Shown: positions 14,706-64,000, counted from the stretch's first letter. The stretch is 64,000 nt of DNA from Firmicutes bacterium ADurb.Bin193 (GCA_002070105.1 MWCQ01000003.1:143101-207100), one strand, 5' to 3'. Numbers and translations are program-made. The notes: generated by a model from the sequence alone, not told the origin.

Positions 14706-14729
14706 TATTTACACCTCTTAGTTTTTTAG

Positions 14730-46088: not shown

Positions 46089-47388
46089 ATCGCCGCTTGG
46101 AAATGATAAGGGTACTTATACCCGAAGTAGTAACGCTGTAAGATGTAGATAACGGAATATGACTGCTGTTGTAAACACTGGAACCCTGCCAAATAAAGAT
46201 TTTAAGCGTATGCCCGTTCACATTGGATGGTAATTGCATTTCAGTATGCTGTACCTGTTGCTGGTTTGGTGCGTATACATATCCCATCCCGCATGAACGG
46301 ACGATTTCTCCGCTCGAATTGTAAAGAATGAAATCCACAAATATTTCCTGAGAATTTGTAGAGTCGTTGTTTTTAATCGTGAAATCTGCACCAAACGTAG
46401 CGTTAGCCGCCAAATTATTACGGCTGAATGTACTTGATACAGTAGCGGCCGGTGGAATATTCTCGGCAACTGTAGCTTCGATTTTATTAATGATTGCTTC
46501 GCTTCCAAATGTACCGCAAACAGGAATTCTGCTATCTGCTTGGTTGATAACATACTGATAACCTTTATCGGAAAGTGGCAGGGTCAAGCTGTACGAGAAA
46601 GTTCCACCTGATGCCGTGTTTACCTGCCCAACATTAACTAATGTTCCTACTTGGTCATAAATGGAAATGCCTACTTTTTTACTGCTTGTCGTGCCAAGTT
46701 TTCCGGAAAAGGAAACAGAATTTGTTCCGCTTGTTGTAACTTTTACTTTCTTAATATATACGCTTGCAGTACCCGTTTGACGAGCTTTAGAGCCTATTTT
46801 TATGTAATATGTCTGTCCTGAAGTCAAGGTTTGCGCTATAGTTACATCCTTTTTATATTCTAAGTTATCCTCATAAACCAATATGTTGTTATCACTGTCA
46901 AGTATTGTTCCAAAAGGTAAAATGTTTCCGGAAAGTTCAATAAAATATGTAGCTGTTTCCGTTGGCGTAAACTTATAATAAGCATAACCTCCAACATACG
47001 CAATATTGGCAGTAGCTGATGTTGTCAAAGAAAGTGCTGTTACCGTACTGTCGTCGGTTGAAACCGCAATCATAAAACTATATACGCCTATTGTTGTGCT
47101 GGTTAACTTAAGGGTGTATACTTCATTCCTTGACAAATATGCCGAGAGTTTATTTGTAGACGACATATTATTTTTAGTTGCAAATGCGATAGTTGGATTA
47201 CTGCTATGGTAAAGGCTTCCGCTCATCCCTGTCCCAGTAGGGACAGAAATTTCATAATTACCATCTTGCGGAACAGTAAAATCGTAACTGTGCAGCTGTC
47301 CGCTCGTTTGGATCGTATTATTGTATATAGTATCAAGCATAATAATATTACTGTCATAAGGCGTGGCGAAAGGCGTCAATGTGTCCAT
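46081..47388 (-). CDS. P3: protein with PPC (pre-peptidase C-terminal)-like beta-sandwich repeats, no signal peptide
   Basis: 435 aa. Repeats of the type HSYDFTVPQDGNYEISV...SLY and YYKFTPTETATYFIELSGN...ILDSDNNILVYED...GQTYYIKI. The C-terminal module ends HTLKIFIWQ. Confidence 0.75.
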   Translation of the reverse strand: MDTLTPFATPYDSNIIMLDTIYNNTIQTSGQLHSYDFTVPQDGNYEISVPTGTGMSGSLYHSSNPTIAFATKNNMSSTNKLSAYLSRNEVYTLKLTSTTIGVYSFMIAVSTDDSTVTALSLTTSATANIAYVGGYAYYKFTPTETATYFIELSGNILPFGTILDSDNNILVYEDNLEYKKDVTIAQTLTSGQTYYIKIGSKARQTGTASVYIKKVKVTTSGTNSVSFSGKLGTTSSKKVGISIYDQVGTLVNVGQVNTASGGTFSYSLTLPLSDKGYQYVINQADSRIPVCGTFGSEAIINKIEATVAENIPPAATVSSTFSRNNLAANATFGADFTIKNNDSTNSQEIFVDFILYNSSGEIVRSCGMGYVYAPNQQQVQHTEMQLPSNVNGHTLKIFIWQGSSVYNSSHIPLSTSYSVTTSGISTLIISKRRFG

Positions 47389-47394
47389 ATCATC

Positions 47395-47898
47395 CTAAAT
47401 CATAATTTTAAGCTTGTGTCCAGTAACAACCGAATCAAACTGCATATTCAGAGTGTAAGTGGAGTCGGAATTAATACTGCCTGTCCCGCTTATTGCTTCA
47501 ACCGACATTTTAACAAGTTTACCAGTGCCATCGTAAACTGCGGCAATCATCTTTGCAGGAGTCACATCGGACACTTTTTTCGTCACGATAATTTGGTAGA
47601 GTGTTCCATTTGCCGTAATATTGTTGGTAACAATACCCGCCGCATTCTTTAGAATAACAGATTTTACTGCAAAATTCGGATTTTCTATGTATGTAACCGA
47701 ATTATATAATTCTATTTCATTTCCTTCTAACGTAATTATTTCGCTTGATTCCACAACATCTTTTGAGGCATCAGCAATTTTACTTTCATTAAGCTGAATC
47801 AAAACCTCTTCGTCACTCGCAAACACGCCAATCGGCAATATTGTAGAGAATAATGTAATTCCGATAATTAAAGCCAACATTCTGTTTATATATCTCAT
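47395..47898 (-). CDS. P2: small secreted beta-rich protein
   Basis: 167 aa with a signal peptide (MLALIIGITLFSTILPIGVFA). The C-terminus, GHKLKIMI, resembles the end of P3. Confidence 0.75.
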   Translation of the reverse strand: MRYINRMLALIIGITLFSTILPIGVFASDEEVLIQLNESKIADASKDVVESSEIITLEGNEIELYNSVTYIENPNFAVKSVILKNAAGIVTNNITANGTLYQIIVTKKVSDVTPAKMIAAVYDGTGKLVKMSVEAISGTGSINSDSTYTLNMQFDSVVTGHKLKIMI

Positions 47899-47944
47899 TT
47901 ATTCTGCCCTCCATTATATATAAACTACATTTAATTTTCAAGCA

Positions 47945-48973
47945 TCACTTTTTCAATTTATCCTTGATTTTATCCCAAACATTTTCTGGTATGTTGTTGC
48001 CATTTGGCGGTATATTTGTGCTACCCTCAATTGGTTTATAAACATCATTAAAATTGGGATGTTCGACCTTTTGAGTTTCATTCGTGCCTTTTTCAAGCTC
48101 GCTATTCGGGATTTTCAAGTATATTGCAGGAAGGAAATCCTCAGGCAGCACAATTTCACCATCCGTTTTAAGGTCATAATCATCCCTCACGCCAATGGTA
48201 GTCCAGGTTATGTAGCCGTATTTAGCCAAATCCTCAACAGTGTATCCATTTGGAAAAGATGCCATAAAACCATTTTCTGTTTTTCTCGCGGGGAAATGGA
48301 GGTATGTATGAAGCGGGTCAGATGAATCAGGGAAATCACTGTGTTCGCTTGAATTTACAGTTTTGCTTTCTCCACTAGGAGCAATTTTCCCAAGCGTAAT
48401 AATATATTGAAGTATTTTCCCGCTATCATCATATGGTTTGCCATCGATAATTTTACATTTCAAAGTTGCATCTCTAAATTTCACATCAACAAATTTATTG
48501 CTGATACCAATATAATCATTTCCGGTTTTCGTATCGATAAATGTTAGAGGAGAAATGGTTTTTATAGGACTATTTATAATTACTGATGTAATTTCGTTTG
48601 TTTCTTCATTGGTTGTAACGCTGATATTTTCAACTCTGCCAACTTCTTGAGTAGAGGTTAATGCATTAACGGCCTCATCATCAGGGTATACAATTGACAA
48701 AGCGATTTTATCATCGCCATCTTTCGGCAAATAATACGCTTCCGTTATTCGTATTCCTAAATCCTTTGGGTTTATAATATCGCCGTTTTCAGTGACTATA
48801 TTGTCTAAAGATATTGATGGTGAATTTGCCCTAAAATCATCAATGATTGGAATAATAATATTTTTGAAAAATTCCATTGCATATCCTGCAGTGAATAAAC
48901 CAAATACTATAATGCCAATGAATATAGCCACAAATTTTTCAAGCTTACTTTTTTTATTCTCCTTATTTCTCAT
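47945..48973 (-). CDS. P1: N-terminally membrane-anchored extracellular protein, unknown function
   Basis: 342 aa with a Lys-rich N-terminus and one TM helix (FVAIFIGIIVFGLFTAGYA). RBS AAAGGAGG. Confidence 0.75.
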   Translation of the reverse strand: MRNKENKKSKLEKFVAIFIGIIVFGLFTAGYAMEFFKNIIIPIIDDFRANSPSISLDNIVTENGDIINPKDLGIRITEAYYLPKDGDDKIALSIVYPDDEAVNALTSTQEVGRVENISVTTNEETNEITSVIINSPIKTISPLTFIDTKTGNDYIGISNKFVDVKFRDATLKCKIIDGKPYDDSGKILQYIITLGKIAPSGESKTVNSSEHSDFPDSSDPLHTYLHFPARKTENGFMASFPNGYTVEDLAKYGYITWTTIGVRDDYDLKTDGEIVLPEDFLPAIYLKIPNSELEKGTNETQKVEHPNFNDVYKPIEGSTNIPPNGNNIPENVWDKIKDKLKK

Positions 48974-49185: not shown

Positions 49186-49234
49186 TGTTAGTCAAATTAC
49201 TGTGGTGTGCGCAAAAAGGATACCAATACAGAAA

Positions 49235-49651
49235 TCATAAATCCTTCGTCAGATGAAATGAAAAGCTTGTTATATTCTCTTTTTCAAAATGCACATCCAC
49301 TCCGGCCTCTCTTAATTTCCGAATTGTTGTTAAAAGAAAAATAGTGTTTCTGGCAAAACGGGAAATTGACTTTGTAATAATCAAATCTATTTCGCCGTTA
49401 TATGCCTTCTTAAGCATTTCATTAAGTCCGGGGCGGCTTTCGCTCAAACCTGACACACCGGTATCCGAATATACACCGCAAAACTCATAATTTGAATTTC
49501 TTAATATGTACCGGGTGTAATATTCTATTTGATTTTCCAAAGAGTTTATTTGCAAATCGTGTTTTGTGGATACCCTGACATAGGCGCAAACCCTCTTTTT
49601 CCGCCACGGAAGTTTATTATTTGCTGTTACTTGGACATTTCTTTTTTGCAT
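49235..49651 (-). pseudogene. large serine recombinase, N-terminal catalytic fragment only
   Basis: 138 aa. Contains VCAYVRVSTKHDLQINSLENQ (catalytic Ser) and ITKSISRFARNT. It diverges and stops after FEKENITS; the recombinase and zinc-ribbon domains are missing. Confidence 0.8.
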
Positions 49652-50288
49652 GACTTTTTACCTCGCAATCTATATTCCGCATAAGCTCTGTGCCATCCCG
49701 AAATATGAACAGTACCTTATCTTCGGAAATCACCTTCACAACATTTATAACTGCCTGCCACACCATGTCATCAAATTGGTCGAGCGGGTTTTGGTGTTTT
49801 TGCAGTTCCTTTAAAAACCCTGTAATCTGCAGCCTCTTGGCCGCACATTTGTTTATTTTTGAAATTACCTGTTCCTGCTGCTGTTGCAGCTTCTCATGGC
49901 GTTTTACATATTCATTATATTTTTCATCATAATCCTTTTTATCGATTATAGTCTGTGCATTGGCTGAAATAAGCCTTTCTATGAGGACATTGATCTCTTC
50001 GCATTGTTTGTCGAGTTCTTCCAGTTGCATCACATAGGCGCTGTCATCGGTTATGGCGTCTAGTATAAGGTTGTAGTTTTCGATAATCTCGTCTTTATTG
50101 TCTACGATGCTGTTGAAGGCTTCAACAAACGCCTTTTTGATTGCGTTTTCTTTTAAGGTCGGAGTTGTGCAATATTTTCTTTTCGTAAATTTATTGTTGC
50201 AGTGCCATACAAACGTTTCATACTTGCTGCCTGCATGCCACACCTTCCTTCCGTAAAAACCACCACACCCTCTTGAAACCGCGATTTC
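49617..50288 (-). pseudogene. large serine recombinase, C-terminal fragment only
   Basis: The frame is open from 50288 (..AVSRGCGGFYGRKVWHAGSKYETFVWHCNNKF). It encodes a zinc-ribbon, a coiled coil and a DUF4368-like tail (FDDMVWQAVINVVKV). The catalytic domain is absent. It overlaps the next recombinase start, as in tandem recombinase sets. Confidence 0.75.
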
Positions 50289-50484: not shown

Positions 50485-51174
50485 TTATCTATCTGTCAAA
50501 CGAACAATCTGACAATTGACCATTACCCTGTCGAGTAGTGTCTGGCAAAGGTGCTTGTCCTCTACTGCATCTATCCACGCAGATATTTCACGATTGGTAA
50601 TAAAAATTATACTTCTGGTTTCATTCAGAAATGAAATCGCTCGATAAAATGATTGCAGCTCTGCTCTGGTAGGTTCAACATAGAATACATCATCGATAAT
50701 AATTAAGTCACATTCTTTCATATAAGAAAAAGTTGTCTCTGCTTTGGTGTACGTATCTTTTTCTTCTGCTACGGATATAAATGTTTCAAAGGGAACATAG
50801 TAGGTTTTATATCCATTGTTAATAGCCCTCTCTCCAAGCTGAACCGCAAGGCTTGTTTTGCCTGTCCCGCATTTACCCAGCAAGATTATGTTTTGTTCCT
50901 CGTCAACCCACGTTAATTGGTATAGCTGTTTTATCTGCCATTTCAAACCTTTGTTTAAATTGGACTCATCAAATACTTTGTTTGGAAGCTTGCTTGCCTT
51001 TCTCATCTTTATATGTTTTTGTCTGACTCGTAGCTCCAGTTCTTTTTCTAAGACCATCTTAAGATAATCGAGATTGGATAATCTCTCATCATTTAAATCT
51101 ATGTGTCCCTTCGCAACATTCCATAGATTCAGCCTTTGAGCCAGCTCTCGGATTTCTGTTATATCAGCCATCAA
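50485..51174 (-). CDS. istB: IS21-family helper ATPase IstB
   Basis: 229 aa. Walker A LLGKCGTGKTS and Walker B LIIIDDV. Confidence 0.92.
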   Translation of the reverse strand: MMADITEIRELAQRLNLWNVAKGHIDLNDERLSNLDYLKMVLEKELELRVRQKHIKMRKASKLPNKVFDESNLNKGLKWQIKQLYQLTWVDEEQNIILLGKCGTGKTSLAVQLGERAINNGYKTYYVPFETFISVAEEKDTYTKAETTFSYMKECDLIIIDDVFYVEPTRAELQSFYRAISFLNETRSIIFITNREISAWIDAVEDKHLCQTLLDRVMVNCQIVRLTDR

Positions 51175-52630
51175 TTTCCCTCCTTATTTCTTTACATCGT
51201 GTTAAGTGGTTAAAGTACTGTTGTGTCGGCAAAAACTTTCTCGCTATGTGCTCGCCATGCTTATACATAAGATAAGCCAAAAGCTCATATGCATTACAGC
51301 GATTACTTTTTATGCAGTATTGTATCCCTTCCAGCAATTGCTCCATGGTGTAAAACTTCGTCATACGATTTAAGCGAATACAATGGGTATTAAAATATTT
51401 TGGTCGTTCCTGTTCCATCCGTTGAATAAATTCCAATGCAATTTCATGTCCTGCAAAATATTGTTTTATAAGAGCAAGCGAAACTCTGTTCTCTATATTA
51501 CTTTCTTCAGCCTTAAACAATTGGCCGGTTTCTTCTGTTGCGGGATACTTTGCCAATAATTCATTGGTTTCCGTATCATAGAACAGGATAATCTCGCCAT
51601 CATCTTCAATACGAATACGTTTATGTGCATCCATAATTCCTACATCTACCTGATACCGGTTCCCTTTATACCTAATAACTCCGCTTGTATCAAAAGATGC
51701 TACAGTGCTTGATACCTCAAAGTATGGCTTAACATGAATTAAATGCTTTTGTTCTTCCATAAACATTTCTCGGGGTATTTTCTTCGTAATGGTATGTATT
51801 CTACCGTTGCCTTCTCTATCCAACCATGCAAGAGCGGCACTGTTAAGGCTGTCAATTCCGGTATAGATTCTGCCTTCCAGAAAACTTTGCTTCACATATC
51901 CGACAACTTCTTCTATCTTCCCTTTGCTTTGGGGATCCCTCGGCCTGCATAGCGAAACGCTGTAACCTACGCGCCTCACATATTCTTCAAATTCCGGCAC
52001 AAATATGATATTTCCTAAATTTTCGCTGACGATATATACCCTATCAAGATCATATAGGATTGTCTGCGGTCTCCCTCCGAAGTATTTAAAAGCATAATTG
52101 TGGGCTTTGATAGCCTTTTTTGTTGTGAATGGATCAGGCGAAAAGTATACAAATTTCATTCTGCTGTAACTTAAAACCATACAGAAGAAATATACCCGTA
52201 CAATCCGTCCATACATATCTTTAAGTTTATATTGTCCGAAGTCCGCCTGTGCCTCATATCCCGGAGGCAACACTTCTCTTGGAGAGATTGTCCTCGTACG
52301 CTGATACCCATGCTGTTCTCTTAAGGCTTTCATGTAGCGGTAGAAGGTAGCACGTTTAACTTGCAAATCCGGAAAAGCTTCCGTTAATTTTAGATAGATG
52401 TTAGTATCTCGAATTTGTGGGCATAACTTCAATTGCTCCAATATGTACTGGCGGTAATTATCCATATGATGCCTTTCCTGCTCAGCCGCTTTTGCGTAAT
52501 CTTCTTTGCTCATGCTCCAGTACTTACAAACAGAACTGTAGGTGATTCCCAACACCTTTGAAGTTTTTGTACGTGTTAAACCAAGCTCTTTATATTCCTG
52601 AATTTTTTGGTATTGCTCAATACCGATCAT
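51164..52630 (-). CDS. istA: IS21-family transposase IstA
   Basis: 488 aa with an N-terminal HTH and a DDE integrase core (QADFG..., ILYDLDRV). Confidence 0.9.
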   Translation of the reverse strand: MIGIEQYQKIQEYKELGLTRTKTSKVLGITYSSVCKYWSMSKEDYAKAAEQERHHMDNYRQYILEQLKLCPQIRDTNIYLKLTEAFPDLQVKRATFYRYMKALREQHGYQRTRTISPREVLPPGYEAQADFGQYKLKDMYGRIVRVYFFCMVLSYSRMKFVYFSPDPFTTKKAIKAHNYAFKYFGGRPQTILYDLDRVYIVSENLGNIIFVPEFEEYVRRVGYSVSLCRPRDPQSKGKIEEVVGYVKQSFLEGRIYTGIDSLNSAALAWLDREGNGRIHTITKKIPREMFMEEQKHLIHVKPYFEVSSTVASFDTSGVIRYKGNRYQVDVGIMDAHKRIRIEDDGEIILFYDTETNELLAKYPATEETGQLFKAEESNIENRVSLALIKQYFAGHEIALEFIQRMEQERPKYFNTHCIRLNRMTKFYTMEQLLEGIQYCIKSNRCNAYELLAYLMYKHGEHIARKFLPTQQYFNHLTRCKEIRREIDG

Positions 52631-52831
52631 TTTGTTTCCCCCTTTATATTATTCAATTATGATTATTTGTATCAGCAATCATAGGCATCACCTCCTTAAA
52701 ACTCAAATTAATTTTTTATATAATAACACATAAACTTGCCTAACTAGAATAGTAATGGTAATAAATTTGAGCAGCAAATGTTACATAAGTGCTGTATATC
52801 CCGAAAAACTATCAAAAGGGAGCGAATTTAA

Positions 52832-52928
52832 AAAGGCACTATTGAAAACCACCACATTGGTAGATTCAATAATGCCTTTGGGATAGTACATCTGTTTCAA
52901 AACTTATCACTTTCATCAGCGTGAGCAG
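52832..52928 (+). pseudogene. inverted, silent hsdS 3'-end remnant
   Basis: The plus strand encodes ..IENHHIGRFNN.. followed by (K)LITFHQREQ*. Compare EQKQIGDFFKYIDNLITLHQREQ in the half-hsdS. It is broken by frameshifts and truncated upstream beside the IS21. Confidence 0.5.
52903..52927. repeat. inverted repeat arm 1 (hsdS conserved region)
   Basis: CTTATCACTTTCATCAGCGTGAGCA equals the reverse complement of 53908-53932 (CTTATCACCCTTCATCAGCGTGAGCA), except that CC is replaced by T. Confidence 0.85.
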
Positions 52929-52947
52929 TGAGATAGATGTGATAAGA

Positions 52948-53880
52948 TTAAGATAAGCCTGATAAAGACCTCATAACAAGATCAACGTCTTGATTCTCAA
53001 GTTCCTGAATAATATGTATATATGTCTTTTGTGTTGTCGTAATGCTCGCGTGTCCCAAGCGTCTTGCTACACTTGCAATCGAGACACCAGCAAACAACAA
53101 AAGTGATGCATGTGTATGTCGCAAACCATGTACTGAAATAACTGGTATTTTCGCTTTCTTACAATGTCTTTCAAGGATATCGTTAACCGTTGAGTTATAA
53201 ACCTCGCGATTATTTTTTATAAAGATAGGATTATCCGCAGGAAGATTTTTTACAAGTTCTGAAAACTGAATAACCGTCTGCCAATCCATTTGGATTTTTC
53301 TTACAGATGATTTATTCTTGGTAGGCTGAAACCCTCCATTACCTTTATAATCCCAAGTTTTACTTATCGACAAAGACTGATGTGCAAAATCAAAATCCCG
53401 CGGTGTAAGTGCCAATGCTTCGGAAAACCTCATTCCGGTTTTTGCAATTAACAATATAAACCAGTCCCAATTAATCTCATCTTTTAAGTTTAACGATTTA
53501 ATTAGGGTATGAAGTTCGTACTGATTCAAGTATTTTGTCTTTTTGGGACAAGGTTGCTTTCCCTTAATGATTGCCTTTCTTGTTGGATCCCTTTCCACTA
53601 ATCCATCATCTACCGCGTCCTGAATCGCACCTTTGAGTTGATGATGAAAATCCATGGTCGTCTGTCGTTCGTGATAACGTGCGTAATCATTTAGCATTTG
53701 CTGATAAGTGATTCTGTTGAGTTCGCATAATTTCAGGTTAGGAATGAGTTTCTCGAGCCACGAATGTGTCATTAAATACTTATCCATTGTCACTTTACGA
53801 ACTGCCCCCTCCTTATACACCTTAATCCATTGAGCATAATAATCACTAAATAAATCGTCTGGTTTTGTTTTGCTTAGCAT
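52948..53880 (-). CDS. tyrosine site-specific recombinase (phage-integrase family)
   Basis: 310 aa. Contains GMRFSEALAL (Arg), HGLRHTHASLLL (HxxR) and QKTYIH (Tyr). The gene is bracketed by the hsdS inverted repeats. Confidence 0.9.
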   Translation of the reverse strand: MLSKTKPDDLFSDYYAQWIKVYKEGAVRKVTMDKYLMTHSWLEKLIPNLKLCELNRITYQQMLNDYARYHERQTTMDFHHQLKGAIQDAVDDGLVERDPTRKAIIKGKQPCPKKTKYLNQYELHTLIKSLNLKDEINWDWFILLIAKTGMRFSEALALTPRDFDFAHQSLSISKTWDYKGNGGFQPTKNKSSVRKIQMDWQTVIQFSELVKNLPADNPIFIKNNREVYNSTVNDILERHCKKAKIPVISVHGLRHTHASLLLFAGVSIASVARRLGHASITTTQKTYIHIIQELENQDVDLVMRSLSGLS

Positions 53881-54451
53881 TTTTAACCTCCTGTTTGATT
53901 ATTATTTGCTCACGCTGATGAAGGGTGATAAGATTGTCTATATATTTGAAGAAATCGCCAATTTGCTTCTGCTCCTGTGGATTACTCGGCGAGTAAACTT
54001 CAATCTGTGCTAAATCATTAGAGTTAATTGCGGGATAGCTTGTACCGGTACAATTATCCAAAACAACTTTCACGAATCCTTCGTTCTGAACAAGACAGAG
54101 TAAGAATCTTCCGTCTACGAGAGGACGCATTTGTGCGTACCCCGTTGAAAAAACATAGTGTTTATCAGGCTTTTCAAATAAATAATTGTTTTTCTGATAT
54201 GGCCTAACCGTCTGATAAAAAAGATCTCCTGTCTGAGCTAAGCGCTGCGCTCTTGATGGTGCTGTCGCTTTCGCTTCAGTTCGGTGCGAAAGCATCTCTG
54301 TGCCAACTACTGACTCCAGATCGACATACTCAAATACATCCGGCAGCTCAGCTTTTGGATTGAATAATGCCAGCTCATTTAGCTTACGCTGTTCCCAAGC
54401 AAGAGAAAAGAGCCAAGGTTTTCCTTGACTCCCTTGAAACCGATGTTTCAT
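53846..54451 (-). CDS. hsdS: half-size HsdS (single TRD)
   Basis: 201 aa. N-terminal conserved region (AWEQRKLNEL), one TRD, then EQKQIGDFFKYIDNLITLHQRE, and it ends there. The start abuts the hsdR stop and the 3' end overlaps the integrase start. Confidence 0.8.
   Translation of the reverse strand: MKHRFQGSQGKPWLFSLAWEQRKLNELALFNPKAELPDVFEYVDLESVVGTEMLSHRTEAKATAPSRAQRLAQTGDLFYQTVRPYQKNNYLFEKPDKHYVFSTGYAQMRPLVDGRFLLCLVQNEGFVKVVLDNCTGTSYPAINSNDLAQIEVYSPSNPQEQKQIGDFFKYIDNLITLHQREQIIIKQEVKNAKQNKTRRFI
53908..53932. repeat. inverted repeat arm 2 (inside the half-hsdS)
   Basis: TGCTCACGCTGATGAAGGGTGATAAG, partner of 52903-52927. Confidence 0.85.
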
Positions 54452-54452
54452 G

Positions 54453-57400
54453 TCATTGTTGATCTAGTATATCTATCTCATAACCACCATTTATTATAAA
54501 ATTTCTAAGCAACTCATCAACTTTGTTGTTAACTCTGAACATGGGAATAGAATTGCCCTCAACAGCTTCAAAATATGCTTTTGCCTTTGTCTTATCAACA
54601 GTTGCTTTCAGATTGTCAAGTCGTCCGTATTCATTGATAGTGGCATCATCCACTTTAAGGTCCATCATTTTTCTTAGCTGCTGCTCATCCAGACCAAGCG
54701 CTACAGAGAGCTTATGGATTTGATCATCCTTTGCCCGTTGCATATATTCGTTGATATAATCTCTCAATGTCTTGCCGGATTCAACACTAACATCACCCGT
54801 CTGAAGATCATGTAGGAAAATGTTTGCATATTTTTGTTCTTCCTGTGTCAATGTGGCAAAAGTTTTATGTAACTCATCTCTTGCACTTTTGACATCTTCA
54901 TCACTACCGTTTGTTAGCGCCTTTTTATACTTTTCAAAGCGGGAATTCATGTAATCGGCATCGATTTCTTCTGTGTTGATCGTGGTAAGATACCCCGCCA
55001 AGTCGTAAGGCGAATCTTCTTTCGAACCGCCCGTCCCTTCAGAAAACAGCTCTTTGTAACGCAAAGCAAGGATTTTATATTCTTTCTCATCAAGAAGCAA
55101 AACAATTTTCTTAACTTCTCCCGTTGCCTTATCAGCGAAAGAATATTCTAATTTATCCCACACAAATCCTTGGACCTTGGCAGCTTCAAGATATTCATTG
55201 AACTGCTTAAACAGCTTTGCAAACTGTTTTCGTTCCGGTATATTCTCCGGCAACTTTTCAAAGTTAAATATTCTTGACTGCTCAAACAGATTTTTTATTT
55301 GTACGAATATCGCATTCATATTTTCAAGATTTTTGTCAAGCTTTATTGCAAACATTCCAAGCGGCTTATCCCCGGAATATAGTTTTACCGCTGCATCAAT
55401 ATTACGTTCCATTGTATATGGCGCACGATAATATTTGATAGTACCAAAAGGCTTATCCGGACCAAAGAGGCGATTTGTTCTGGAAAACGCCTGAATTATA
55501 TTTTCATAGCGTATTACCTTGTCAAGATACAAAACATTAATCCATTTGGAATCATATCCGGTAAGCATTTGATCTACAACAATCAATAGGTCAATCTTTT
55601 CTTCGGGCTTATTATCAATCCTTTCATAAGGCTTTTTGTGTGCCAGTCGAGCCTGAATATCCTTTTTCATTTTTCCGTATGTAGAAATTGTAAAGGTCTG
55701 CCCATAGAGCTTATTATAATCGGAAATGATCTCAAGTAAGGCGTCTTCTTTTTCAATGCCTGTGCCATTATTATCAATGCTCGGATCAAAAAGGGCAGTT
55801 ACTTTAAGATGAGGCGCCTCTTCCTTGAACCGCTTATAATACTGCACTGCTTCTGGAATGCTGGAAGTTGCGAACAAGCCGTGGAACTTATGATTATGAC
55901 TGATAACAATCCAGTTATCAATAATATCCCGAACTACCATTTTTTGATGTTCTTCAGTGCGATACTGCCCATTATCCAGAAGAAAATCTTCAATACCTTT
56001 AACATATGTTCCGTCAGTTTGATAGTAACCGGCCATTGGCACATCATTTATGTATTTATAATAAATTTTTTTCTTTTTAGGATCTTTGAAAACTTCATCT
56101 ACCGATGAAGCCTTTGCCATACCCAAGGCAACCGCCCGTCGCATATCACTTTCCTTAAAGGTCAGAACTTTATCCGGGTCAAAACCTAATACATTCTTGT
56201 CACGAATACCGTCAGCTATGCTGTAACGGTGCAACTCGTTACCAAAAACATCTGCGGTCGTGCAACCTTTTTTCTCATTTTCAATATGAATCGGCGTTCC
56301 GGTAAAGCCAAAAAACAGCGCTTTGGGGAAGGTTTGCTTTATTACGCCCATCATCTCCCCAAAAGTAGAGCGATGGCATTCGTCAACAATAAACACAATT
56401 CGTTTTTCACAAATTAAATCAAGATCGCTTTTTTTCAATTGTCCTTCAGTATCATTTTTGATATTACTCATTTTCTGAATTGAAGTAACTATCAAAGTGT
56501 TTGCAGGATCGTTGCTTTTCAGTTTTGCAATTAAAACAGCGGTGTCTTCAGTTTCCTGAATAGAATCTGTTTCATCCGCAAAACCACGATATTCATTTGC
56601 GCTTTGTGTGCCAAGCTCTATGCGGTCAATGAGAAACACCACTTTATCGGCATCCTTTGAGTTAGCAATAAGTTGAGCGGACTTGAAGGATGTCATAGTT
56701 TTGCCTGAACCTGTTGTATGCCAGACATAGCCGCCGAGCTGATTTCCACTTTCCCACTTGTGTTTGGCAACTGTATCGGAAATCTTGTTAGCTGCGTAAT
56801 ATTGGTACGAACGCATAACTTTTAAAACACCGTCAGAATTATCTGCAACGGTATAAAAACCGATGAGCTGATGAGCCATAGGAATGGACAATAATGTATA
56901 AGCAACCATCTTCCAGTCATTTATCGGTTCATTGTTAAAATCCGCCCAATGAAAATAAAAATCTGTGTTAAATTTGCCGTCCGGTCCGGGATTGGCAAAA
57001 TATAAAGCCTCTTCAGGATTCATGGCAACAAATACTTGCACCAGTGAAAACAACCCCGTAAACACACCTTCATGAGCATACTTTTCAATCTGATTATATG
57101 CCTGCGACACAGGGATACCACTTCTTTTCAGTTCCACATGTATAAGCGGCATTCCGTTAATCAGCAGCATAAAGTCGCCTCGTCTATCAGGCAGAATACT
57201 TGACTTGGCCGTAAATTTTGGTTGCCTTGCAATCTGATAACGGCTTTGTCCAGCGGCAATTTCCTGCCGGTCATAGATTTTTAAGCTGACCTCCTTGCCA
57301 AAATGGGCTTTATCGTCCGGATTGTCACGAATAATTGATACGGTTTTGCCGTTGATAAATCCATTGAGTTTTAGCGGAGTTTTAAGTACTTCAATCTGTG

Positions 57401-57608
57401 TAAGTATCTGCCGCATTTCTCCTTCTGTCAGTGGGTAATCATTCAGACGGTCAATGCTACGGTTGTTCTCAAAAAGAATATTGGCCCAGTTTTGCAATAA
57501 CTCTTTTTCAGTTTTGTATTCCAAAACCTCAGGCTCCCATCCGCAGGAATCCGTCAGCAATTTTATGAGCGCATCTTCAAATTCGGATTCTTTTGTAAAT
57601 GCCATCAT
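54453..57608 (-). CDS. hsdR: Type I restriction enzyme R subunit
   Basis: 1051 aa. N-terminal PD-(D/E)xK region (DFMLLINGMPLIHVELK) and SF2 helicase motifs (HTTGSGKTMTSF, FIVDECHRS, TGTPI, QAFSRTNR). Confidence 0.95.
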   Translation of the reverse strand: MMAFTKESEFEDALIKLLTDSCGWEPEVLEYKTEKELLQNWANILFENNRSIDRLNDYPLTEGEMRQILTQIEVLKTPLKLNGFINGKTVSIIRDNPDDKAHFGKEVSLKIYDRQEIAAGQSRYQIARQPKFTAKSSILPDRRGDFMLLINGMPLIHVELKRSGIPVSQAYNQIEKYAHEGVFTGLFSLVQVFVAMNPEEALYFANPGPDGKFNTDFYFHWADFNNEPINDWKMVAYTLLSIPMAHQLIGFYTVADNSDGVLKVMRSYQYYAANKISDTVAKHKWESGNQLGGYVWHTTGSGKTMTSFKSAQLIANSKDADKVVFLIDRIELGTQSANEYRGFADETDSIQETEDTAVLIAKLKSNDPANTLIVTSIQKMSNIKNDTEGQLKKSDLDLICEKRIVFIVDECHRSTFGEMMGVIKQTFPKALFFGFTGTPIHIENEKKGCTTADVFGNELHRYSIADGIRDKNVLGFDPDKVLTFKESDMRRAVALGMAKASSVDEVFKDPKKKKIYYKYINDVPMAGYYQTDGTYVKGIEDFLLDNGQYRTEEHQKMVVRDIIDNWIVISHNHKFHGLFATSSIPEAVQYYKRFKEEAPHLKVTALFDPSIDNNGTGIEKEDALLEIISDYNKLYGQTFTISTYGKMKKDIQARLAHKKPYERIDNKPEEKIDLLIVVDQMLTGYDSKWINVLYLDKVIRYENIIQAFSRTNRLFGPDKPFGTIKYYRAPYTMERNIDAAVKLYSGDKPLGMFAIKLDKNLENMNAIFVQIKNLFEQSRIFNFEKLPENIPERKQFAKLFKQFNEYLEAAKVQGFVWDKLEYSFADKATGEVKKIVLLLDEKEYKILALRYKELFSEGTGGSKEDSPYDLAGYLTTINTEEIDADYMNSRFEKYKKALTNGSDEDVKSARDELHKTFATLTQEEQKYANIFLHDLQTGDVSVESGKTLRDYINEYMQRAKDDQIHKLSVALGLDEQQLRKMMDLKVDDATINEYGRLDNLKATVDKTKAKAYFEAVEGNSIPMFRVNNKVDELLRNFIINGGYEIDILDQQ

Positions 57609-57617
57609 ACCGCTCCT

Positions 57618-58235
57618 TTACTTTTCGTCTCTGATATTTTCCGTTTTATAGACATTGTATCCCTCATAATGATAGCTTGCGTCAATGCCTTTAATATAGA
57701 CCTCGCGGTCATTGATTTTATCCGTCAAGGCGGCTTTCAAAAGCACCTTGATTTCTACATCTTTAATTGGGCTGCGCTCCATTGCAAGAAGATAATCTTC
57801 CTTCTCGACCTTGCTCCAGTCAATGACCATTTTGAGTTCTTTTTTTAGAATTGCATCCAGCCAAATACGAGTACTTCTGCCGTTACCCTCACGGAAGGGA
57901 TGGGCAATATTCATTTCGACATACTTCTCGATTATTTCATCGAAAGTGGATTGCGGCATTTTTTCAATGTTATCCAGTGCCGCCTTCAGATACATCACCG
58001 GCGCAAAGCGAAAATTGCCCTTTGCAATGTTCACATCACGTATTTTCCCGGCAAAATCATAAATTTCTTCAAACAAATACCTGTGGATCATCGCAAGTCC
58101 TTCAAAGGTTCCGACCGGGAAAGTGTCCAAAAGGCCGGTTTCAAAAAGTTCCAAAGCCTTTTTTTTGCTGATTTTTTCTTCCGCACGGGCAAGTTCGGCA
58201 GGATCCGTAATACCCAGTTTATTTTCTAATGCCAT
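57618..58235 (-). CDS. fic: Fic-domain protein (class III-like, C-terminal inhibitory motif)
   Basis: 205 aa. Canonical [12 protein letters not shown] motif. The C-terminal SYHYEG fits the autoinhibitory (S/T)xxxE(G/N) motif. The gene is wedged between hsdS (17 nt gap) and hsdR (9 nt gap). Confidence 0.9.
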
Positions 58236-58252
58236 AAACTAACTCCTTTCTG

Positions 58253-59464
58253 TCAAACAAACATCTTTTCAAGACATGCTTTTTTAAAATTTTGCAACTT
58301 TTCCAACTTACGCTGATGAAGGGCGATAAGGTTGTCGAGGTTGCGGAAAAAGGTACCGATTTTAGTTTGTTCCTTCAAAGAAGGAACAAAAGTTTTTAAT
58401 TCAGAAAACTCTGTTTTATTTATTATCTGCATAGTTCCGGCTGCAGCTGAACTTTTCATTTTTTCAGACCATAATGCACTTTCTGAAAGTAAAAAATATG
58501 GAAAGTTTTCTTTTTCATTCGGTACTAATCCGTTAATCTGCTGGTTAAAACTGCCCGTAGTACCTAGCATCGTGTTCTTTCCTATACTGGCAATACTTGT
58601 TACTAAAACTGTATTTTGAGGAACAACGCGAGCAACTTTTTGCCCTTCTTCACTTAAACGTTTAGCAGTGTTAAAGGTAATATTCTCAGAAATATCCGTG
58701 GGTGTAACCCAAGGTATTCCATCGTCAGAATAGTATGCTTGAACCTGTGTTGATGGAGTTGAACCTGTAATAATTTCACCAAGTTCCCCCAACTTACGCT
58801 GTTCCCAAGCTTCAGTAAATCCCTTAAAACGAATTTTAGGGACATTGCTTCCGTTTTTTGGAAACATTTTTTCAAGACAAGATTTTTTGATGTTTTTTAA
58901 TTTGTCATACTTACGCTGATGAAGGGCGATAAGGTTGTCGAGGTTGCGGAAAAAGGTACCGATTTTAGTTTGTTCCTTCAAAGAAGGAACAAAAGTTTTT
59001 AATTCAGAAAACTCTGTTTTATTTATTATCTGCATAGTTCCGGCTGCAGCTGAACTTTTCATTTTTTCAGACCATAATGCACTTTCTGAAAGTAAAAAAT
59101 ATGGAAAGTTTTCTTTTTCATTCGGTACTAATCCGTTAATCTGCTGGTTAAAACTGCCCGTAGTACCTAGCATCGTGTTCTTTCCTATACTGGCAATACT
59201 TGTTACTAAAACTGTATTTTGAGGAACAACGCGAGCAACTTTTTGCCCTTCTTCACTTAAACGTTTAGCAGTGTTAAAGGTAATATTCTCAGAAATATCC
59301 GTGGGTGTAACCCAAGGTATTCCATCGTCAGAATAGTATGCTTGAACCTGTGTTGATGGAGTTGAACCTGTAATAATTTCACCAAGTTCCCCCAACTTAC
59401 GCTGTTCCCAAGCTTCAGTAAATCCGGCGAATCGAATAGCCGGTTTTCTCGCTGTTTCAGACAT
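58253..59464 (-). CDS. hsdS: Type I specificity subunit with two identical TRDs
   Basis: 403 aa. Residues of about 14-185 and 215-386 are identical. Conserved regions are FTEAWEQRKLGEL and NLDNLIALHQRK, each present twice. Confidence 0.93.
   Translation of the reverse strand: MSETARKPAIRFAGFTEAWEQRKLGELGEIITGSTPSTQVQAYYSDDGIPWVTPTDISENITFNTAKRLSEEGQKVARVVPQNTVLVTSIASIGKNTMLGTTGSFNQQINGLVPNEKENFPYFLLSESALWSEKMKSSAAAGTMQIINKTEFSELKTFVPSLKEQTKIGTFFRNLDNLIALHQRKYDKLKNIKKSCLEKMFPKNGSNVPKIRFKGFTEAWEQRKLGELGEIITGSTPSTQVQAYYSDDGIPWVTPTDISENITFNTAKRLSEEGQKVARVVPQNTVLVTSIASIGKNTMLGTTGSFNQQINGLVPNEKENFPYFLLSESALWSEKMKSSAAAGTMQIINKTEFSELKTFVPSLKEQTKIGTFFRNLDNLIALHQRKLEKLQNFKKACLEKMFV
58306..59425. repeat. 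517-bp perfect direct repeat, 603-bp period, inside hsdS
   Basis: On my read-through of the printed lines, 58306-58822 equals 59425-58909's interval 58909-59425 at every position. Independent support: track ORFs 58332-58619 and 58935-59222 give the same 95-aa peptide. Confidence 0.9.
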
Positions 59465-59466
59465 AC

Positions 59467-61428
59467 TTATTCACCTCCAAGAAGCTTTTTGAGCTCCGCA
59501 ATACCCTTCATGTCAAATTCATTGCCGGTTAATTCATCTAACATAGCACAAAGGGATGATTCCGTTTCGCGAATCTGTTCTTCCACCTCAAAGAATGTAG
59601 TCTCATACTTCTTTGCCAGCGCATTAAGCTTTAAAACAAATTCGTTCACAATTTTTTTAGGCAACTCAAAAAGACCTGAAAGAATAGGTGTAATCCATTT
59701 TAGTTTAAGCAACTCTTTTACCTGATTATCTGTCAGTTCTTCAATTGCCTTTTTGGTTTTCATTTGAAGCTCAGCCGCTTCTTCTTTCACCTTTTTCTTT
59801 AGAGTTTTTTCTTCTGTGTTTAAAGCATCATATTTTTTTAGTATCTCCAAAACTTCCGGCTCGACTTCATTTTCCTTGATTGCCTTTTTAACGGCAGCAG
59901 GAACAAACGCCGTTTTATCATCATTTACAAAATCCTTATCTTTTTCTTCTTCAGGCAATTCATCCAGCAGGGATTCATATTCAGAGGCAATTTCAGCAAG
60001 TCTGTTTTCGTTTGCTTTCTGCTGTGCAAGAGCATCGTGCAAGAACCTCTCCTGAACAAGTTCAAAAGGAATCACCCTGCCTACCCATCCGTCCTGCACT
60101 TCAATATCCTTGCCGTCCTTTTTCTTGACAATCATATTAGGATCGACCTTTTTGGTGGATTCAAATCCCTCCGTCTGGATTATTTCAAGATCAACGGCAA
60201 TGTTTAGCCATGCGTCATCCAGTATCTGATACGCTTCATATTTATCTACAAGGGGAATGCCATCAAGACTCTCAAAAATCTTTTCGGCAAGTTCATTTTC
60301 TTTCCTTGAAACGTTAATACTTTCCATTCCCGCAATCAATTCATTATACAGGAATTCCTCAAAGCCCTCGAAAGCAGTTTTAAATTTCTGCTCAAAGGAC
60401 TGAATGTCGGTATGCTCGATAACCGCATTTTTAATATCATCTGTATTAAAATGCCAATAAGCGGCAGAATCATCAGCAAAGAGTGCCTTTTTTAGGTTCG
60501 GAAACGCTGACCAGTATGCTGCCAGCTCATCCACTTCGCTTGCAGGAATACCACCGAACATAGAGGTATAAATATCCCAGCTTTCCGGCTTTTCGGAGGA
60601 ATCCACATAACGTGGAATATTGAGGTTATAATCATTCTTACGGATTTCATCGCGGGATACTACCCTTGAGAATTTCTCTACGGAAATGCGCTGTGTCACC
60701 ACATCCACAATCCGTTTTATATCGCAGGCTCGTAATTTGTTATTCTTACCTGCCTTTTCAAATCCTTTTGATGCGTCAATAATAAGTACATCGGTATTGC
60801 TGCGCTTCTGTTTAAGTACCATGATAATTGTAGGAATGCCCGTACCAAAAAAAATATTTGCAGGAAGGCCAATGATGGCATCAATCTTATTATTCTCAAT
60901 CAGGTTCTTGCGAATTTCACCTTCCTCACCGCCACGGAACAGAACGCCATGAGGTAATACAATCGTCATAATACCGTCAGGCTTGACATGATAGAGATCA
61001 TGAAGCAGAAATGCATAGTCTGCTTTGCCTTTTGGTGCAAGGCCATAGTCTTTATAACGAGGATCGGATTCCTTGTCGGAAGGATTCCAATGCTGAGAAT
61101 AGGGTGGATTTGAAACCACCGCATCAACATAAAGAGGGTTATATGTTCCAATAGGATCACTTTCTTCAAAGTAAGGCCAGTCATCCTCCAATGTATCTCC
61201 GTTACGGGTAACTATGTTATAATGGTTAATTCCTCGCATAATAAGATTCATACGAGTAAGGTTATAGGTGTTTTCCTTAAGCTCCTGTGCGTAGTATTTA
61301 ATTTTATCGCTGTTGCCCATATATTTTGCAACGCTTTTACCAATATTGATAAGTAATGAGCCGGAGCCGGAGGTCGGGTCTATAAAGACGCTGTCTTTGA
61401 TACAAACAGAAAAAGCCTTCTCTGGCAC
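59467..61428 (-). CDS. hsdM: Type I methyltransferase subunit, 5'-truncated (N-terminal domain and motif X missing)
   Basis: 653-aa ORF starting at GTG. Motif I (FIDPTSGSGSLL) sits at residue 15 and motif IV (NPPYSQHW) is present. A long helical C-terminal extension follows. The normal 150-200 aa N-terminal region is absent. Confidence 0.85.
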   Translation of the reverse strand: MPEKAFSVCIKDSVFIDPTSGSGSLLINIGKSVAKYMGNSDKIKYYAQELKENTYNLTRMNLIMRGINHYNIVTRNGDTLEDDWPYFEESDPIGTYNPLYVDAVVSNPPYSQHWNPSDKESDPRYKDYGLAPKGKADYAFLLHDLYHVKPDGIMTIVLPHGVLFRGGEEGEIRKNLIENNKIDAIIGLPANIFFGTGIPTIIMVLKQKRSNTDVLIIDASKGFEKAGKNNKLRACDIKRIVDVVTQRISVEKFSRVVSRDEIRKNDYNLNIPRYVDSSEKPESWDIYTSMFGGIPASEVDELAAYWSAFPNLKKALFADDSAAYWHFNTDDIKNAVIEHTDIQSFEQKFKTAFEGFEEFLYNELIAGMESINVSRKENELAEKIFESLDGIPLVDKYEAYQILDDAWLNIAVDLEIIQTEGFESTKKVDPNMIVKKKDGKDIEVQDGWVGRVIPFELVQERFLHDALAQQKANENRLAEIASEYESLLDELPEEEKDKDFVNDDKTAFVPAAVKKAIKENEVEPEVLEILKKYDALNTEEKTLKKKVKEEAAELQMKTKKAIEELTDNQVKELLKLKWITPILSGLFELPKKIVNEFVLKLNALAKKYETTFFEVEEQIRETESSLCAMLDELTGNEFDMKGIAELKKLLGGE

Positions 61429-61453
61429 ATAAGTGCTGAAAAAGGCTTGAAAT

Positions 61454-61510
61454 AAAGGGCTTTCGAGGTTCTGCTGTGTTCTACAGCAGAGCTTCGGAAG
61501 CCCTTTTTCT
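61454..61510. terminator. long hairpin terminator abutting the hsdM start
   Basis: AAAGGGCTTTCGAGGTTCTGCTGT-GTTC-TACAGCAGAGCTTCGGAAGCCCTTT followed by TTCTGTTT. T-rich on both strands. Confidence 0.7.
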
Positions 61511-61620
61511 GTTTATTCGATTGCCGCTGGCCGGTTCTGTGGTCTTCGGAACTTACCCCTCAAAACCGGCGGTCGGAGGAATAATTAAAAAGTGTGGAAT
61601 AATTAAAAGGTTCAATCAGC

Positions 61621-62463
61621 CTAAAGCAATTCCTTCAGCGTTTTTCCATTTGAATCCTTCCAGAGGGCATTACCGCTCAAAGATGCCCCGCCGACAAAAC
61701 CAGCTGCAGATGACGGACTTGAGAATAAAACGTCTGATATAAGAATGCCGTTTTTATCAATCTTGTCGGCGTACTTATTTCGATCTTTTATCGCTCTTTC
61801 AGGGCAACTCTTTGTAACAGTCGGATTAATTGCGCTTCCTTTGAAGACCACGAAACCTTCGCTGGTTCTTTTACCAGAAGCCTTTCCTTTTCCATACTCC
61901 AGATAAAGGACCGGCTCATCATTCTCTGCTTCCGGAGCAGGTGCAAAAGGCTCAAAAACTCTATGGCCAAGCGTTCCCATTACGATCTTTGCATAGTCAA
62001 TGAACTCTTCAAGTTCGCTTTCGGTTTCCTCTGTGATGTTTCCGGGATTTGGGTCATTTCCGTTTTTCACAGAATACCGTCCGGCCTGAACAGCCATATT
62101 GCAGAACCGATTTTCAAGGTAGCTTATCTCAGTCGGACCAAATGAATTATTCGTCGTTGTGAACATAATGGCTTCAGTCCAATAATCAATAGAGGTATGC
62201 GGTTCTTGGATTCGGAGCAGAAGGCCTTTTCCATTTTTACGCACTCCGGCCTGACCTATATACACAACAGCATTATCAGATTTATCGGTGCCGAACAGGA
62301 AGTAGACTCCGCTTTGTTTGAGAATATCTAAGTCCTTACATTTATCCAACGCAGTACGAGGAACCTTATATGCAATTCCGGTCCAGTTGGCAAGAGAACA
62401 CTTGATTCTTCCGCTCGGTTCGCCATCCATTAAAAAAAGCTTGATTGTTTTACTTCTCGGCAT
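61621..62463 (-). CDS. GIY-YIG nuclease domain plus DUF4357-like C-terminal domain protein
   Basis: The track ORF extends to 62532. ATG 62463 (MPRSKTIKLFLMDGEP) lies 6 nt after AGGAGG. GIY-YIG hallmarks are GVYFLFG, VVYIGQA and ISYLENRF. The C-terminal half (FVVFKGS...GASLSGNALWKD) resembles DUF4357, from memory. Confidence 0.7.
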   Translation of the reverse strand: MPRSKTIKLFLMDGEPSGRIKCSLANWTGIAYKVPRTALDKCKDLDILKQSGVYFLFGTDKSDNAVVYIGQAGVRKNGKGLLLRIQEPHTSIDYWTEAIMFTTTNNSFGPTEISYLENRFCNMAVQAGRYSVKNGNDPNPGNITEETESELEEFIDYAKIVMGTLGHRVFEPFAPAPEAENDEPVLYLEYGKGKASGKRTSEGFVVFKGSAINPTVTKSCPERAIKDRNKYADKIDKNGILISDVLFSSPSSAAGFVGGASLSGNALWKDSNGKTLKELL

Positions 62464-62510
62464 GCTATTCCTCCTACTTAATCCACAAACAAGTCCGGGA
62501 TTATTCTTAT

Positions 62511-63005
62511 TCACTTCGAGATGCGCTGCCATTTTTCTATAGAGCGCAATATTTCATCTTCATACTTGACTCGAAACACCGTTCTAAATGCACCGAGTGA
62601 ATACTGTATTTGTTGAGATAACGCATCTCGAGGGAAATCCTTTATGAGCACTTTTATGGATCGGCTGTGCTGAAGACACTCGTTTTGATCTGCGTTGTAT
62701 TCGTAATCTCCGGTAACTGTGGCAAGGACATACGTATGGCTTCCCTTTGAAGGGATTAGGACATAATCGCCAATTTGAATCTTCTGAACGAAATCGAGAA
62801 TCTGTCCAACCCAAGTTGCAACAGAAGTTCTATTATCTGTGCACTTCTCATTACCAACAGCAAGTCGGAGTTCTTCCTTTGTCTTTATGGCCTTAAAGTC
62901 ATAATGATATCCATCCCACGGAAGAAATACCCTCTGAGATTCCAGTATTGCATCGTAATATATTGAATTACGTCCAGCTCTGATTAACCACATCATATGC
63001 ATCAT
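62511..63005 (-). CDS. stand-alone domain protein resembling the N-terminal module of Mrr-type restriction proteins
   Basis: 164 aa (true start probably the 4th or 5th Met, MWLIRAGR). Pattern: MWLIRAG...GDYVLIPSKGSHTYVLATVTGDYEY...HSRSIKVL...RDALS...SLGAFRTVFRV. No nuclease motif is present and the ORF ends right after the module. Confidence 0.55.
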   Translation of the reverse strand: MMHMMWLIRAGRNSIYYDAILESQRVFLPWDGYHYDFKAIKTKEELRLAVGNEKCTDNRTSVATWVGQILDFVQKIQIGDYVLIPSKGSHTYVLATVTGDYEYNADQNECLQHSRSIKVLIKDFPRDALSQQIQYSLGAFRTVFRVKYEDEILRSIEKWQRISK

Positions 63006-63040: not shown

Positions 63041-64000
63041 CTAAAACAACGTTAGCTGTGTATAGCCGTATACTTTGCCGTCATCTATAGCAAAGTCCGA
63101 AATATACTCTTTGAATTCGCCAAGTTCCATTGTCCCATACTGTTCACACATTTCGCTTGCCTTCAAATAACAATCTAAAAGCGAAAAAGTACCAGTTTCT
63201 AAAATCTTGTTCATGGATTCAACGACGGCATTTTTCAGAAGTTTCGTCTTTTTCTTGTATCCATCCTTGATGATGTACATCCCTGCCTTCTTGTCATAAT
63301 CAAAAATGGAACTAATAATAGAATCCTTATCTGCAAGCAGCCGATAATCCATATTATTTTTGAGCCATGCGATGATAAATTCTCTATCAAGTATAGTTTT
63401 GGCGATTCTTCCTTCTCGTGAATTAGCGACAAAACACAGATGTGACAGCACAGGAGATAAATCCTTTGATACTTTGACCTCCGTGTTAAGAGTGTAGACA
63501 GAATACACGTCACTAATATAGCTGGAATTGATCGACATTTGCGCCTTTGAGGAAATAACAGCAGGTATTTGATAAAAGACGCTTTCACAGACAAACCCAT
63601 TGTTTTGAAGCGCAGCAATCAGAGCCGTCCAAGCCCTCATGTCGTTGTTATTGAATGTAATAAGAAGTTTACCCGTTTCTGTCAAATGCCGAGTAAAGCA
63701 ACACATATACTCATCAAGCTTTTGGGAATAATTCTCCCATGAGGCCGATTTGTCCATTCTGTCACTTACGCTGATATCTTCATCGGAACAAGGAATATCC
63801 TTGAGAAAGCTATTCCAAATATTCGAGAACTCTGTATATGGAACGCTATCCCCATAGGGAGGATCTAAAAAGATTAGATCCGCCTTAAGATCAGAGTATT
63901 CGTTGCGATTCAATAGCTCCAATGAATTCCCGTGAATGATTTTAGCTTCAGCATTGATAGGAGTTTGCGAGAGGGCTACTAAGGCCTTTTTAAACTTCGA
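63041..64000 (-). CDS. DNA (N6-adenine/N4-cytosine) methyltransferase, 5' end outside window
   Basis: The track starts it at a TTG, but my translation keeps the frame open to position 64000 (SKFKKALVALSQTPINAEAKIIHGNSLELLNRNEYSDLKADLIFLDPPYG). Motif IV DPPY is present. No GxG motif occurs in the 270 aa after it, so motif I should lie upstream, outside the window. Confidence 0.75.
   Translation of the reverse strand, partial: SKFKKALVALSQTPINAEAKIIHGNSLELLNRNEYSDLKADLIFLDPPYGDSVPYTEFSNIWNSFLKDIPCSDEDISVSDRMDKSASWENYSQKLDEYMCCFTRHLTETGKLLITFNNNDMRAWTALIAALQNNGFVCESVFYQIPAVISSKAQMSINSSYISDVYSVYTLNTEVKVSKDLSPVLSHLCFVANSREGRIAKTILDREFIIAWLKNNMDYRLLADKDSIISSIFDYDKKAGMYIIKDGYKKKTKLLKNAVVESMNKILETGTFSLLDCYLKASEMCEQYGTMELGEFKEYISDFAIDDGKVYGYTQLTLF

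Follow-up and report, generated by a model that had tools for sequence, protein, structure and literature searches.

PrrC, the toxin of the EcoprrI hsdMSR operon, is found almost exclusively embedded within Type I restriction-modification (R-M) loci (Payne et al., bioRxiv 10.1101/2024.01.29.577857). The same study used 'guilt by embedding' in Type I R-M, BREX and DISARM loci to define the PDC families of PADLOC ('phage defence candidates'). For one of these families, PDC-S04, a member gene has since been assayed in its native host, E. coli NILS69, where it gave no defence (10.1101/2024.12.20.629700).

In NmFic, a class III Fic AMP-transferase of Neisseria meningitidis, replacement of Glu186 by Gly relieves inhibition of the enzyme (PMC3667792). 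Tyr183 and Tyr188 are the auto-AMPylation sites of NmFic, and its activity depends on concentration (review PMC12894286). In the toxins FicT and VbhT, toxic activity consists of the AMPylation of a tyrosine in GyrB and ParE (review PMC12894286).

Here we describe a Fic gene that lies between hsdS and hsdR in a 64,000-nucleotide stretch (the window) from Firmicutes bacterium ADurb.Bin193, and compare its protein, its operon and its relatives with these systems.

The fic gene and its product

The coordinates of the locus are collected in Table 1. On the minus strand, hsdM, hsdS, fic, hsdR, a half-size hsdS' and a tyrosine recombinase gene follow one another in this order, the first five separated by gaps of 2, 17, 9 and 1 nt. 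The order hsdM-hsdS-fic-hsdR and the gaps of 17 and 9 nt around fic had been given in a first-pass annotation made from the sequence, and both gaps are exact. The longer of these two spacers carries a ribosome-binding site, GAAAGGAG, while in the shorter the fusion of AGGAG to the fic stop codon suggests that translation of fic and hsdR may be coupled.

Table 1. Features of the fic locus and its surroundings, numbered from the first nucleotide of the window
Feature	Coordinates	Strand	Size	Description
Four consecutive ORFs	44103..48973	-	661, 435, 167 and 342 aa	no Pfam or PADLOC match
ORF	49617..50243		208 aa	adjoins the four-ORF block; no Pfam or PADLOC match
IS21-family element	50485..52630	-		istA rve integrase and istB ATPase
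Tyrosine recombinase	52948..53880	-		overlaps the end of hsdS'; module of phase-variable Type I loci
hsdS', half-size	53846..54451	-	201 aa	one target-recognition domain (TRD); directly after hsdR, orientation as hsdS
hsdR	54453..57608	-	1051 aa	full length; HSDR_N, SWI2_SNF2/ResIII, T1R_D3, EcoR124_C
fic-hsdR spacer	57609..57617	-	9 nt	fic TAA to hsdR ATG; AGGAG abuts TAA
fic	57618..58235	-	205 aa	class III Fic AMP-transferase; ATG start; PADLOC PDC-S04
Inhibitory-helix motif S-Y-H-Y-E-G	57660..57677	-	residues 187-192	C-terminal; aligned to NmFic and EfFic
Catalytic motif HPFxEGNGRxxR	57867..57902	-	residues 112-123	intact
hsdS-fic spacer	58236..58252	-	17 nt	separates the hsdS stop from the fic ATG; ribosome-binding site
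hsdS	58253..59464	-	403 aa	full length; two near-identical target-recognition halves
hsdM remnant	59467..61428	-	653 aa	lacks ~214 N-terminal residues (HsdM_N domain and region before motif I)
Hairpin	61457..61503		20-bp stem	T-rich tails on both strands; between PDC-S14 gene and hsdM
PDC-S14/DUF4357 gene	61621..62532			complete; upstream of operon
PDC-S02 gene	62511..63005			N-terminal half only; upstream of operon
Type II DNA methyltransferase	63041..63922			C-terminal part only; upstream of operon

The protein matches the Pfam Fic family (PF02661) with an E-value of 1.3e-13 (52 bits, cutoff 24). Among solved structures it matches EfFic of Enterococcus faecalis (5NV5; E 2e-89, residues 3-199) and NmFic (2G03/3S6A; E ~1e-67), to which it is 67% and 61% identical, respectively, over essentially its full length. 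The open reading frame, the Pfam match and the structure matches agree in placing a class III Fic gene between hsdS and hsdR, as first proposed.

The two motifs that were also proposed at that stage, an intact active site and the autoinhibitory sequence SYHYEG, are present and align with those of NmFic and EfFic. Both are very well conserved. The catalytic H, N and G and both R residues show no variation across 87 aligned family members, and the same is true of the S, both Y, the E and the G of S-Y-x-Y-E-G. In the alignment SYHYEG pairs with S-Y-Y-Y-E-G of NmFic, the site of the inhibitory Glu186, so that Glu191, Tyr188 and Tyr193 of the fic product are the counterparts of Glu186, Tyr183 and Tyr188 in NmFic. 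Conservation extends to the flap region (18 residues, aligned with IREDNISKGGFRFANAMY in NmFic). Glu107 and Glu161 are the equivalents of Glu102 and Glu156, reported by Stanger and colleagues in 2016 to lie at the NmFic tetramer interface.

A second [ST]xxxE[GN] motif was found nowhere in the 205-aa protein, and neither the 17-nt nor the 9-nt gap leaves room for an antitoxin reading frame beside fic. The protein thus shows every sequence feature of class III: a single domain within the ~190-210 aa typical of the class, a C-terminal helix motif, no class II N-terminal motif and no class I antitoxin gene. Among embedded fic copies dN/dS is 0.03-0.10, with synonymous sites near saturation, and these copies are under strong purifying selection.

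The family is not new. The PADLOC profile PDLC04842 (PDC-S04) matches the fic product over positions 1-201 of 202 with an E-value of 4.8e-106, while the validated SoFic model matches the core motif only (E 1.3e-4). As a defence-candidate gene, the embedded Fic is therefore already catalogued. Literature pairing Fic with hsdS or hsdR was mostly unrelated, the relevant prior work being the PADLOC guilt-by-embedding preprint. The suggestion in the first-pass annotation that a Fic protein in a Type I slot could act in defence was, in its general form, already published as PDC-S04; the only native-host assay reported for this family, in E. coli NILS69, showed no defence.

State of the host Type I operon

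The hsdM gene covers positions 215-857 only of the 857-position PADLOC MTase_I profile, and a full-length HsdM relative of 871 aa likewise aligns to it from residue 215 only. When this relative was used as the query in a tblastn search, the lost 5' part was absent from the whole window. The remaining frame begins with a GTG that has no Shine-Dalgarno sequence and lies 25-30 nt past the hairpin, which is probably a terminator. The truncation could be an artefact of assembly of the metagenome-assembled genome (MAG); four other metagenome contigs encode an identical Fic protein with the same neighbours, and none of the four covers this junction.

The hsdS gene consists of a 603-nt tandem duplication (58259-59464) whose halves are 93.5% identical. 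The units are identical over offsets 47-563 (517 nt), and every mismatch lies at the unit ends. Since both target-recognition domains are alike, a symmetric recognition site is implied. One of the sibling contigs with an identical Fic (L002) carries a single-unit hsdS of 202 aa in place of the two-unit gene, which could reflect either real copy-number variation or a collapse in assembly.

Downstream of hsdR, the tyrosine recombinase is 72-90% identical in relatives, and the IS21 element stands where relatives have, past the recombinase, a copy of hsdS in inverted orientation. A phase-variable (shufflon) locus was considered here and rejected: the recombinase and hsdS' are present, but hsdS' points the same way as hsdS, an inverted partner is missing, and a search of 49000-62000 gave no inverted repeats of at least 25 nt that could serve an hsdS shufflon.

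Of the three full-length subunits that define a functional Type I system (HsdM, HsdS and HsdR), HsdM is incomplete. With hsdM truncated behind the hairpin and devoid of a Shine-Dalgarno sequence, this locus probably does not produce a functional restriction complex. Unless the assembly is at fault, decay has affected the Type I system at its two ends but has spared fic and hsdR. Given the truncated hsdM, the loss of the inverted hsdS partner and the adjacent IS21 element, cooperation between Fic and restriction would not be operating in this genome.

The hsdS-hsdR junction in related loci

A reciprocal survey of metagenomes with HsdR as bait yielded 31 loci at 49-88% identity, and with the exception of the weakest match every one reaches at least 65%. 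Sequence upstream of hsdR is available for ~24 of the 31, and several of these are near-duplicate contigs, so the counts that follow are indicative only. In ~13 loci the slot is empty, with a gap of 14-45 nt between hsdS and hsdR. Five loci (L086, L087, L088, L092 and L101) carry the same class III Fic at 86-89% identity, and one carries a Fic of another PDC-S04 subfamily (PDLC04838, 29% identical; L107:6381-6998). In L101 the order is M-S-Fic-R and every gene of the operon has its full length. The remaining occupants are a DUF3990-unknown-NADAR trio (PADLOC PDC-M42A/B/C; L100:301-1856), a NADAR gene alone (L098:26-514) and a non-coding gap of 380 nt (L104). Two loci (L090 and L103) have a different layout without hsdS upstream; in L090 a ZacC-like helicase (884-3859) lies just upstream of hsdR. 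Sporolactobacillus and a plasmid of Cetobacterium show yet other arrangements.

The arrangement is thus not unique to this genome. The slot is occupied by this Fic in 5 of the ~24 HsdR-relative loci and in three species genomes from other phyla.

The borders of the slot are well conserved. Between hsdS and fic the spacer has almost the same sequence as that between hsdS and hsdR in a Fic-less relative (L085), and fic and hsdR share the same start, ATGGCATT (58228-58235 and 57606-57613). The 3' end of hsdS (…CTTGAGAAGATGTTTGTATAA) is present twice in the genome L006, the additional copy being located between fic and hsdR (10616-10738). Together, the spacer, the shared start and this repeat suggest cassette exchange at the slot by recombination in the conserved flanks. 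The gene content of these loci identifies the junction of hsdS and hsdR in this Type I lineage as a swap-in slot for toxin-like cassettes.

Homologues in genomes, plasmids and phages

A species-level scan, with one genome per species, gave at least 553 relatives, of which the best 80 were taken for analysis of context. These are 74-86% identical to the fic product and derive from Bacillota, Spirochaetes, Cyanobacteria/Melainabacteria, Bacteroidales, Desulfovibrionaceae and Eggerthellaceae. In ~69 of the 80 (~85%) there is no Type I gene within 10 kb. Type I-like genes occur within that distance in ~11 of the 80, and in ~8 of these Fic is embedded in or abuts the Type I genes. Three of the latter (L006, L041 and L076, species genomes from other phyla) have the order M-S-Fic-R with homologous Hsd proteins (63-71% identity). 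The layout in L042 is R-S-M-Fic-S'-Int, and in L030, L034, L061 and L081 Fic lies within or abuts more distant Type I loci. In ~3 further relatives Type I-like genes are found within 10 kb.

Among the 110 immediate neighbours 158 Pfam families are represented, the commonest being HsdR domains with only 5-6 hits. The number of PADLOC 'mad3' matches among the neighbours equals that of Pfam ResIII matches, which suggests that the former are HsdR-like helicases. Type I genes are the commonest single neighbour class, at ~10-14% of loci; as a rough estimate, well under 1% would be expected for a random gene. Given this frequency, there may be some functional synergy of Fic with R-M systems.

In PLSDB, 994 plasmids carry class III Fic relatives at 57-70% identity, most of them from Enterococcus (797), Lactococcus (100) and Bacillus (57); examples are NZ_LR135347.1 (L117), NZ_CP068250.1 (L119), NZ_MG813924.1 (L118) and CP064282.1. 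In the three non-R-M plasmid records that were inspected, Fic lies beside a resolvase gene or closes a mobilisation operon. On Enterococcus plasmids, a serine recombinase/resolvase gene follows ~15 nt after the Fic gene, and on a Lactococcus plasmid Fic is the final gene of a mobC-relaxase-mob operon. One Fic-bearing plasmid, from Enterococcus faecium, measures only 2,217 bp. A plasmid of Cetobacterium somerae (L116, NZ_CP092521.1) carries, over positions 6449-15725, hsdM-Fic-hsdS with 1-nt gaps, a small ORF, a gene for an AAA-family ATPase and hsdR; its embedded Fic is already annotated in RefSeq.

In a neighbour-joining tree the embedded fic copies are polyphyletic and scattered among solo copies. 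A column-wise comparison of embedded with solo copies found enrichment in one of 205 alignment columns, and hence no residue signature specific to embedding and no hint of a surface that would bind Hsd. These two results speak against a specialised subfamily of embedded Fic proteins.

Proposed function and alternatives

Based on these observations, it seems rather likely that the product of fic is an AMP-transferase of the NmFic/EfFic family that works autonomously and inhibits itself, and that its gene is carried as optional cargo in a polymorphic slot of a Type I R-M lineage of the phase-variable type. The fold family, both motifs, purifying selection, the operon-style embedding, the presence or absence of the cassette and membership of PDC-S04 come from the analysis itself; the steps of mechanism that go beyond a class III Fic with intact motifs are modelled on NmFic, at 61% identity.

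By analogy with NmFic, Glu191 of the C-terminal helix would prevent productive binding of ATP in the resting state, and oligomers would conceal the target site. The trigger would be a state in which monomers predominate, for example after a drop in concentration caused by shut-off of the operon or loss of the element. Auto-AMPylation of Tyr188 in cis would then loosen the inhibitory helix, and the released Fic may AMPylate a tyrosine of a GyrB/ParE-type target, leading to arrest of DNA replication and growth. Under physiological conditions the reaction may run in either direction, since EfFic, the closer relative, was reported by Veyron and colleagues in 2019 to be a metal-switched AMPylase/deAMPylase. 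As such control would be intrinsic to the Fic protein, the Hsd proteins would not be needed, and all that the R-M operon would contribute is transcription, coupled translation and a means of horizontal transfer. The pay-off would be related to conflict, as abortive-infection-type defence, as stabilisation of the mobile locus, or as both. The fragmentary defence island upstream of the operon fits a conflict role of fic.

Stabilisation might also be the entire function. As a single-protein addiction module, Fic would be diluted on loss of the element and would arrest the cell, thereby stabilising a plasmid or R-M island with no direct role against phage. The 994 plasmid records, which include a plasmid of 2.2 kb and backbone positions beside a resolvase gene or a mob operon, are consistent with this, as are the lack of a separate antitoxin, the concentration-dependent activity of NmFic (PMC12894286) and the lack of phage defence by the PDC-S04 gene assayed in E. 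coli NILS69 (10.1101/2024.12.20.629700). However, many chromosomal homologues stand in ordinary-looking contexts, next to genes for ABC transporters, sigma factors or UvrA, and an R-M system is already self-stabilising. Moreover, killing triggered by dilution is not known from class III Fic enzymes. An addiction module of this kind seems unlikely.

The diversity of genomic contexts could instead indicate that Fic modulates a housekeeping target mildly and reversibly, by AMPylation and deAMPylation as in EfFic, that it has no function in conflict and that its gene simply ended up in an intergenic slot prone to recombination. Very high conservation across phyla together with strong purifying selection would agree with such a regulator, and the conserved slot borders (3' end of hsdS, 5' end of hsdR) favour cassette exchange. 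However, the other occupants of the slot are toxin-like genes or defence candidates (the other Fic subfamily and the PDC-M42 DUF3990/NADAR genes), and the places where Fic is enriched (beside Type I genes, on plasmids, within a broken-up defence island) point to conflict systems. We consider a passively carried regulator to be improbable, to about the same degree as an addiction module.

The first-pass annotation had suggested that Fic could work in the manner of PrrC, a toxin that the Type I enzyme keeps latent. The HsdMSR complex would then bind Fic and keep it inactive until an anti-restriction protein of a phage inactivated the complex, upon which Fic would drive abortive infection as a second line of defence. 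The locus does resemble such a guard in its prrC-type slot, its operon-style spacing and the possible translational coupling to hsdR; the embedding is repeated in several Type I lineages and phyla, with Type I genes as the commonest single neighbour class. However, the near-obligate co-occurrence with Type I genes that characterises PrrC is not seen in the Fic family, in which most close homologues have no Hsd partner. The fic product also bears its own inhibitory helix, and the position of Fic within the operon varies (S-Fic-R, M-Fic-S, M-Fic-S'-Int, or Fic first). In addition, hsdM is truncated here while fic is intact, a combination that would be lethal or counter-selected were masking by Hsd required. 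With ~69 of 80 relatives free of Type I genes, relatives in non-R-M contexts on 994 plasmids, polyphyletic embedded copies that have no surface positions of their own, and this truncated hsdM, PrrC-style gating is poorly supported and seems very unlikely. For lineages with an intact operon, it is similarly unlikely that release of an embedded Fic is tied to the state of the Hsd complex or to anti-restriction proteins of phages, for example through co-translational assembly with HsdR; a Fic coupled in this way would be a counterpart of PrrC that acts by AMPylation.

An anti-defence role by way of phage-borne relatives was also considered and set aside, as the matches (six phage records, two of them close) are too sparse.

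Taken by itself, this locus is one more decayed example of a catalogued candidate family. Its main value lies in the comparative evidence for the hsdS-hsdR junction as a swap-in slot. Should embedded class III Fic proteins prove to protect against phage or to stabilise R-M islands, this would supply a function for a very widespread family, with close relatives in more than 550 species genomes and on ~1,000 plasmids, and AMPylation of gyrase-type targets would join the back-up effectors of immunity.

Comparison with known systems

The fic product matches PDC-S04 over its full length, and nothing sets it apart from that family. With NmFic and EfFic it shares a single FIC domain of ~200 aa, the motifs HPFxEGNGRxxR and S-Y-x-Y-E-G and the tyrosines that are auto-AMPylated; it differs in the embedding of its gene in a Type I R-M operon.

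SoFic, a class II enzyme, is also a Fic-domain AMPylase, for which phage defence of the abortive-infection type has been reported; Fic enzymes can therefore be effectors of defence. However, SoFic has ~360 aa, an N-terminal inhibitory helix and extra domains, compared with the 205 aa of the fic product. The class I toxins FicT and VbhT have the same catalytic core (VbhT matches the fic product with an E-value of 1e-16). These are paired with separate small antitoxins, FicA and VbhA, whereas in fic the inhibitory motif is present in cis and the gaps on either side fit no ORF.

The likeness to PrrC of EcoprrI lies in the nesting of a toxin-type gene within a Type I operon (hsdMSR) and in the idea of a back-up to restriction. 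In their proteins the two differ: PrrC is an anticodon nuclease of the ABC-ATPase type, with an ABC-ATPase N-domain and a nuclease C-domain, that is masked by Hsd, whereas the fic product is a single FIC domain that carries its own inhibitory motif and belongs to a family found mostly in solo contexts.
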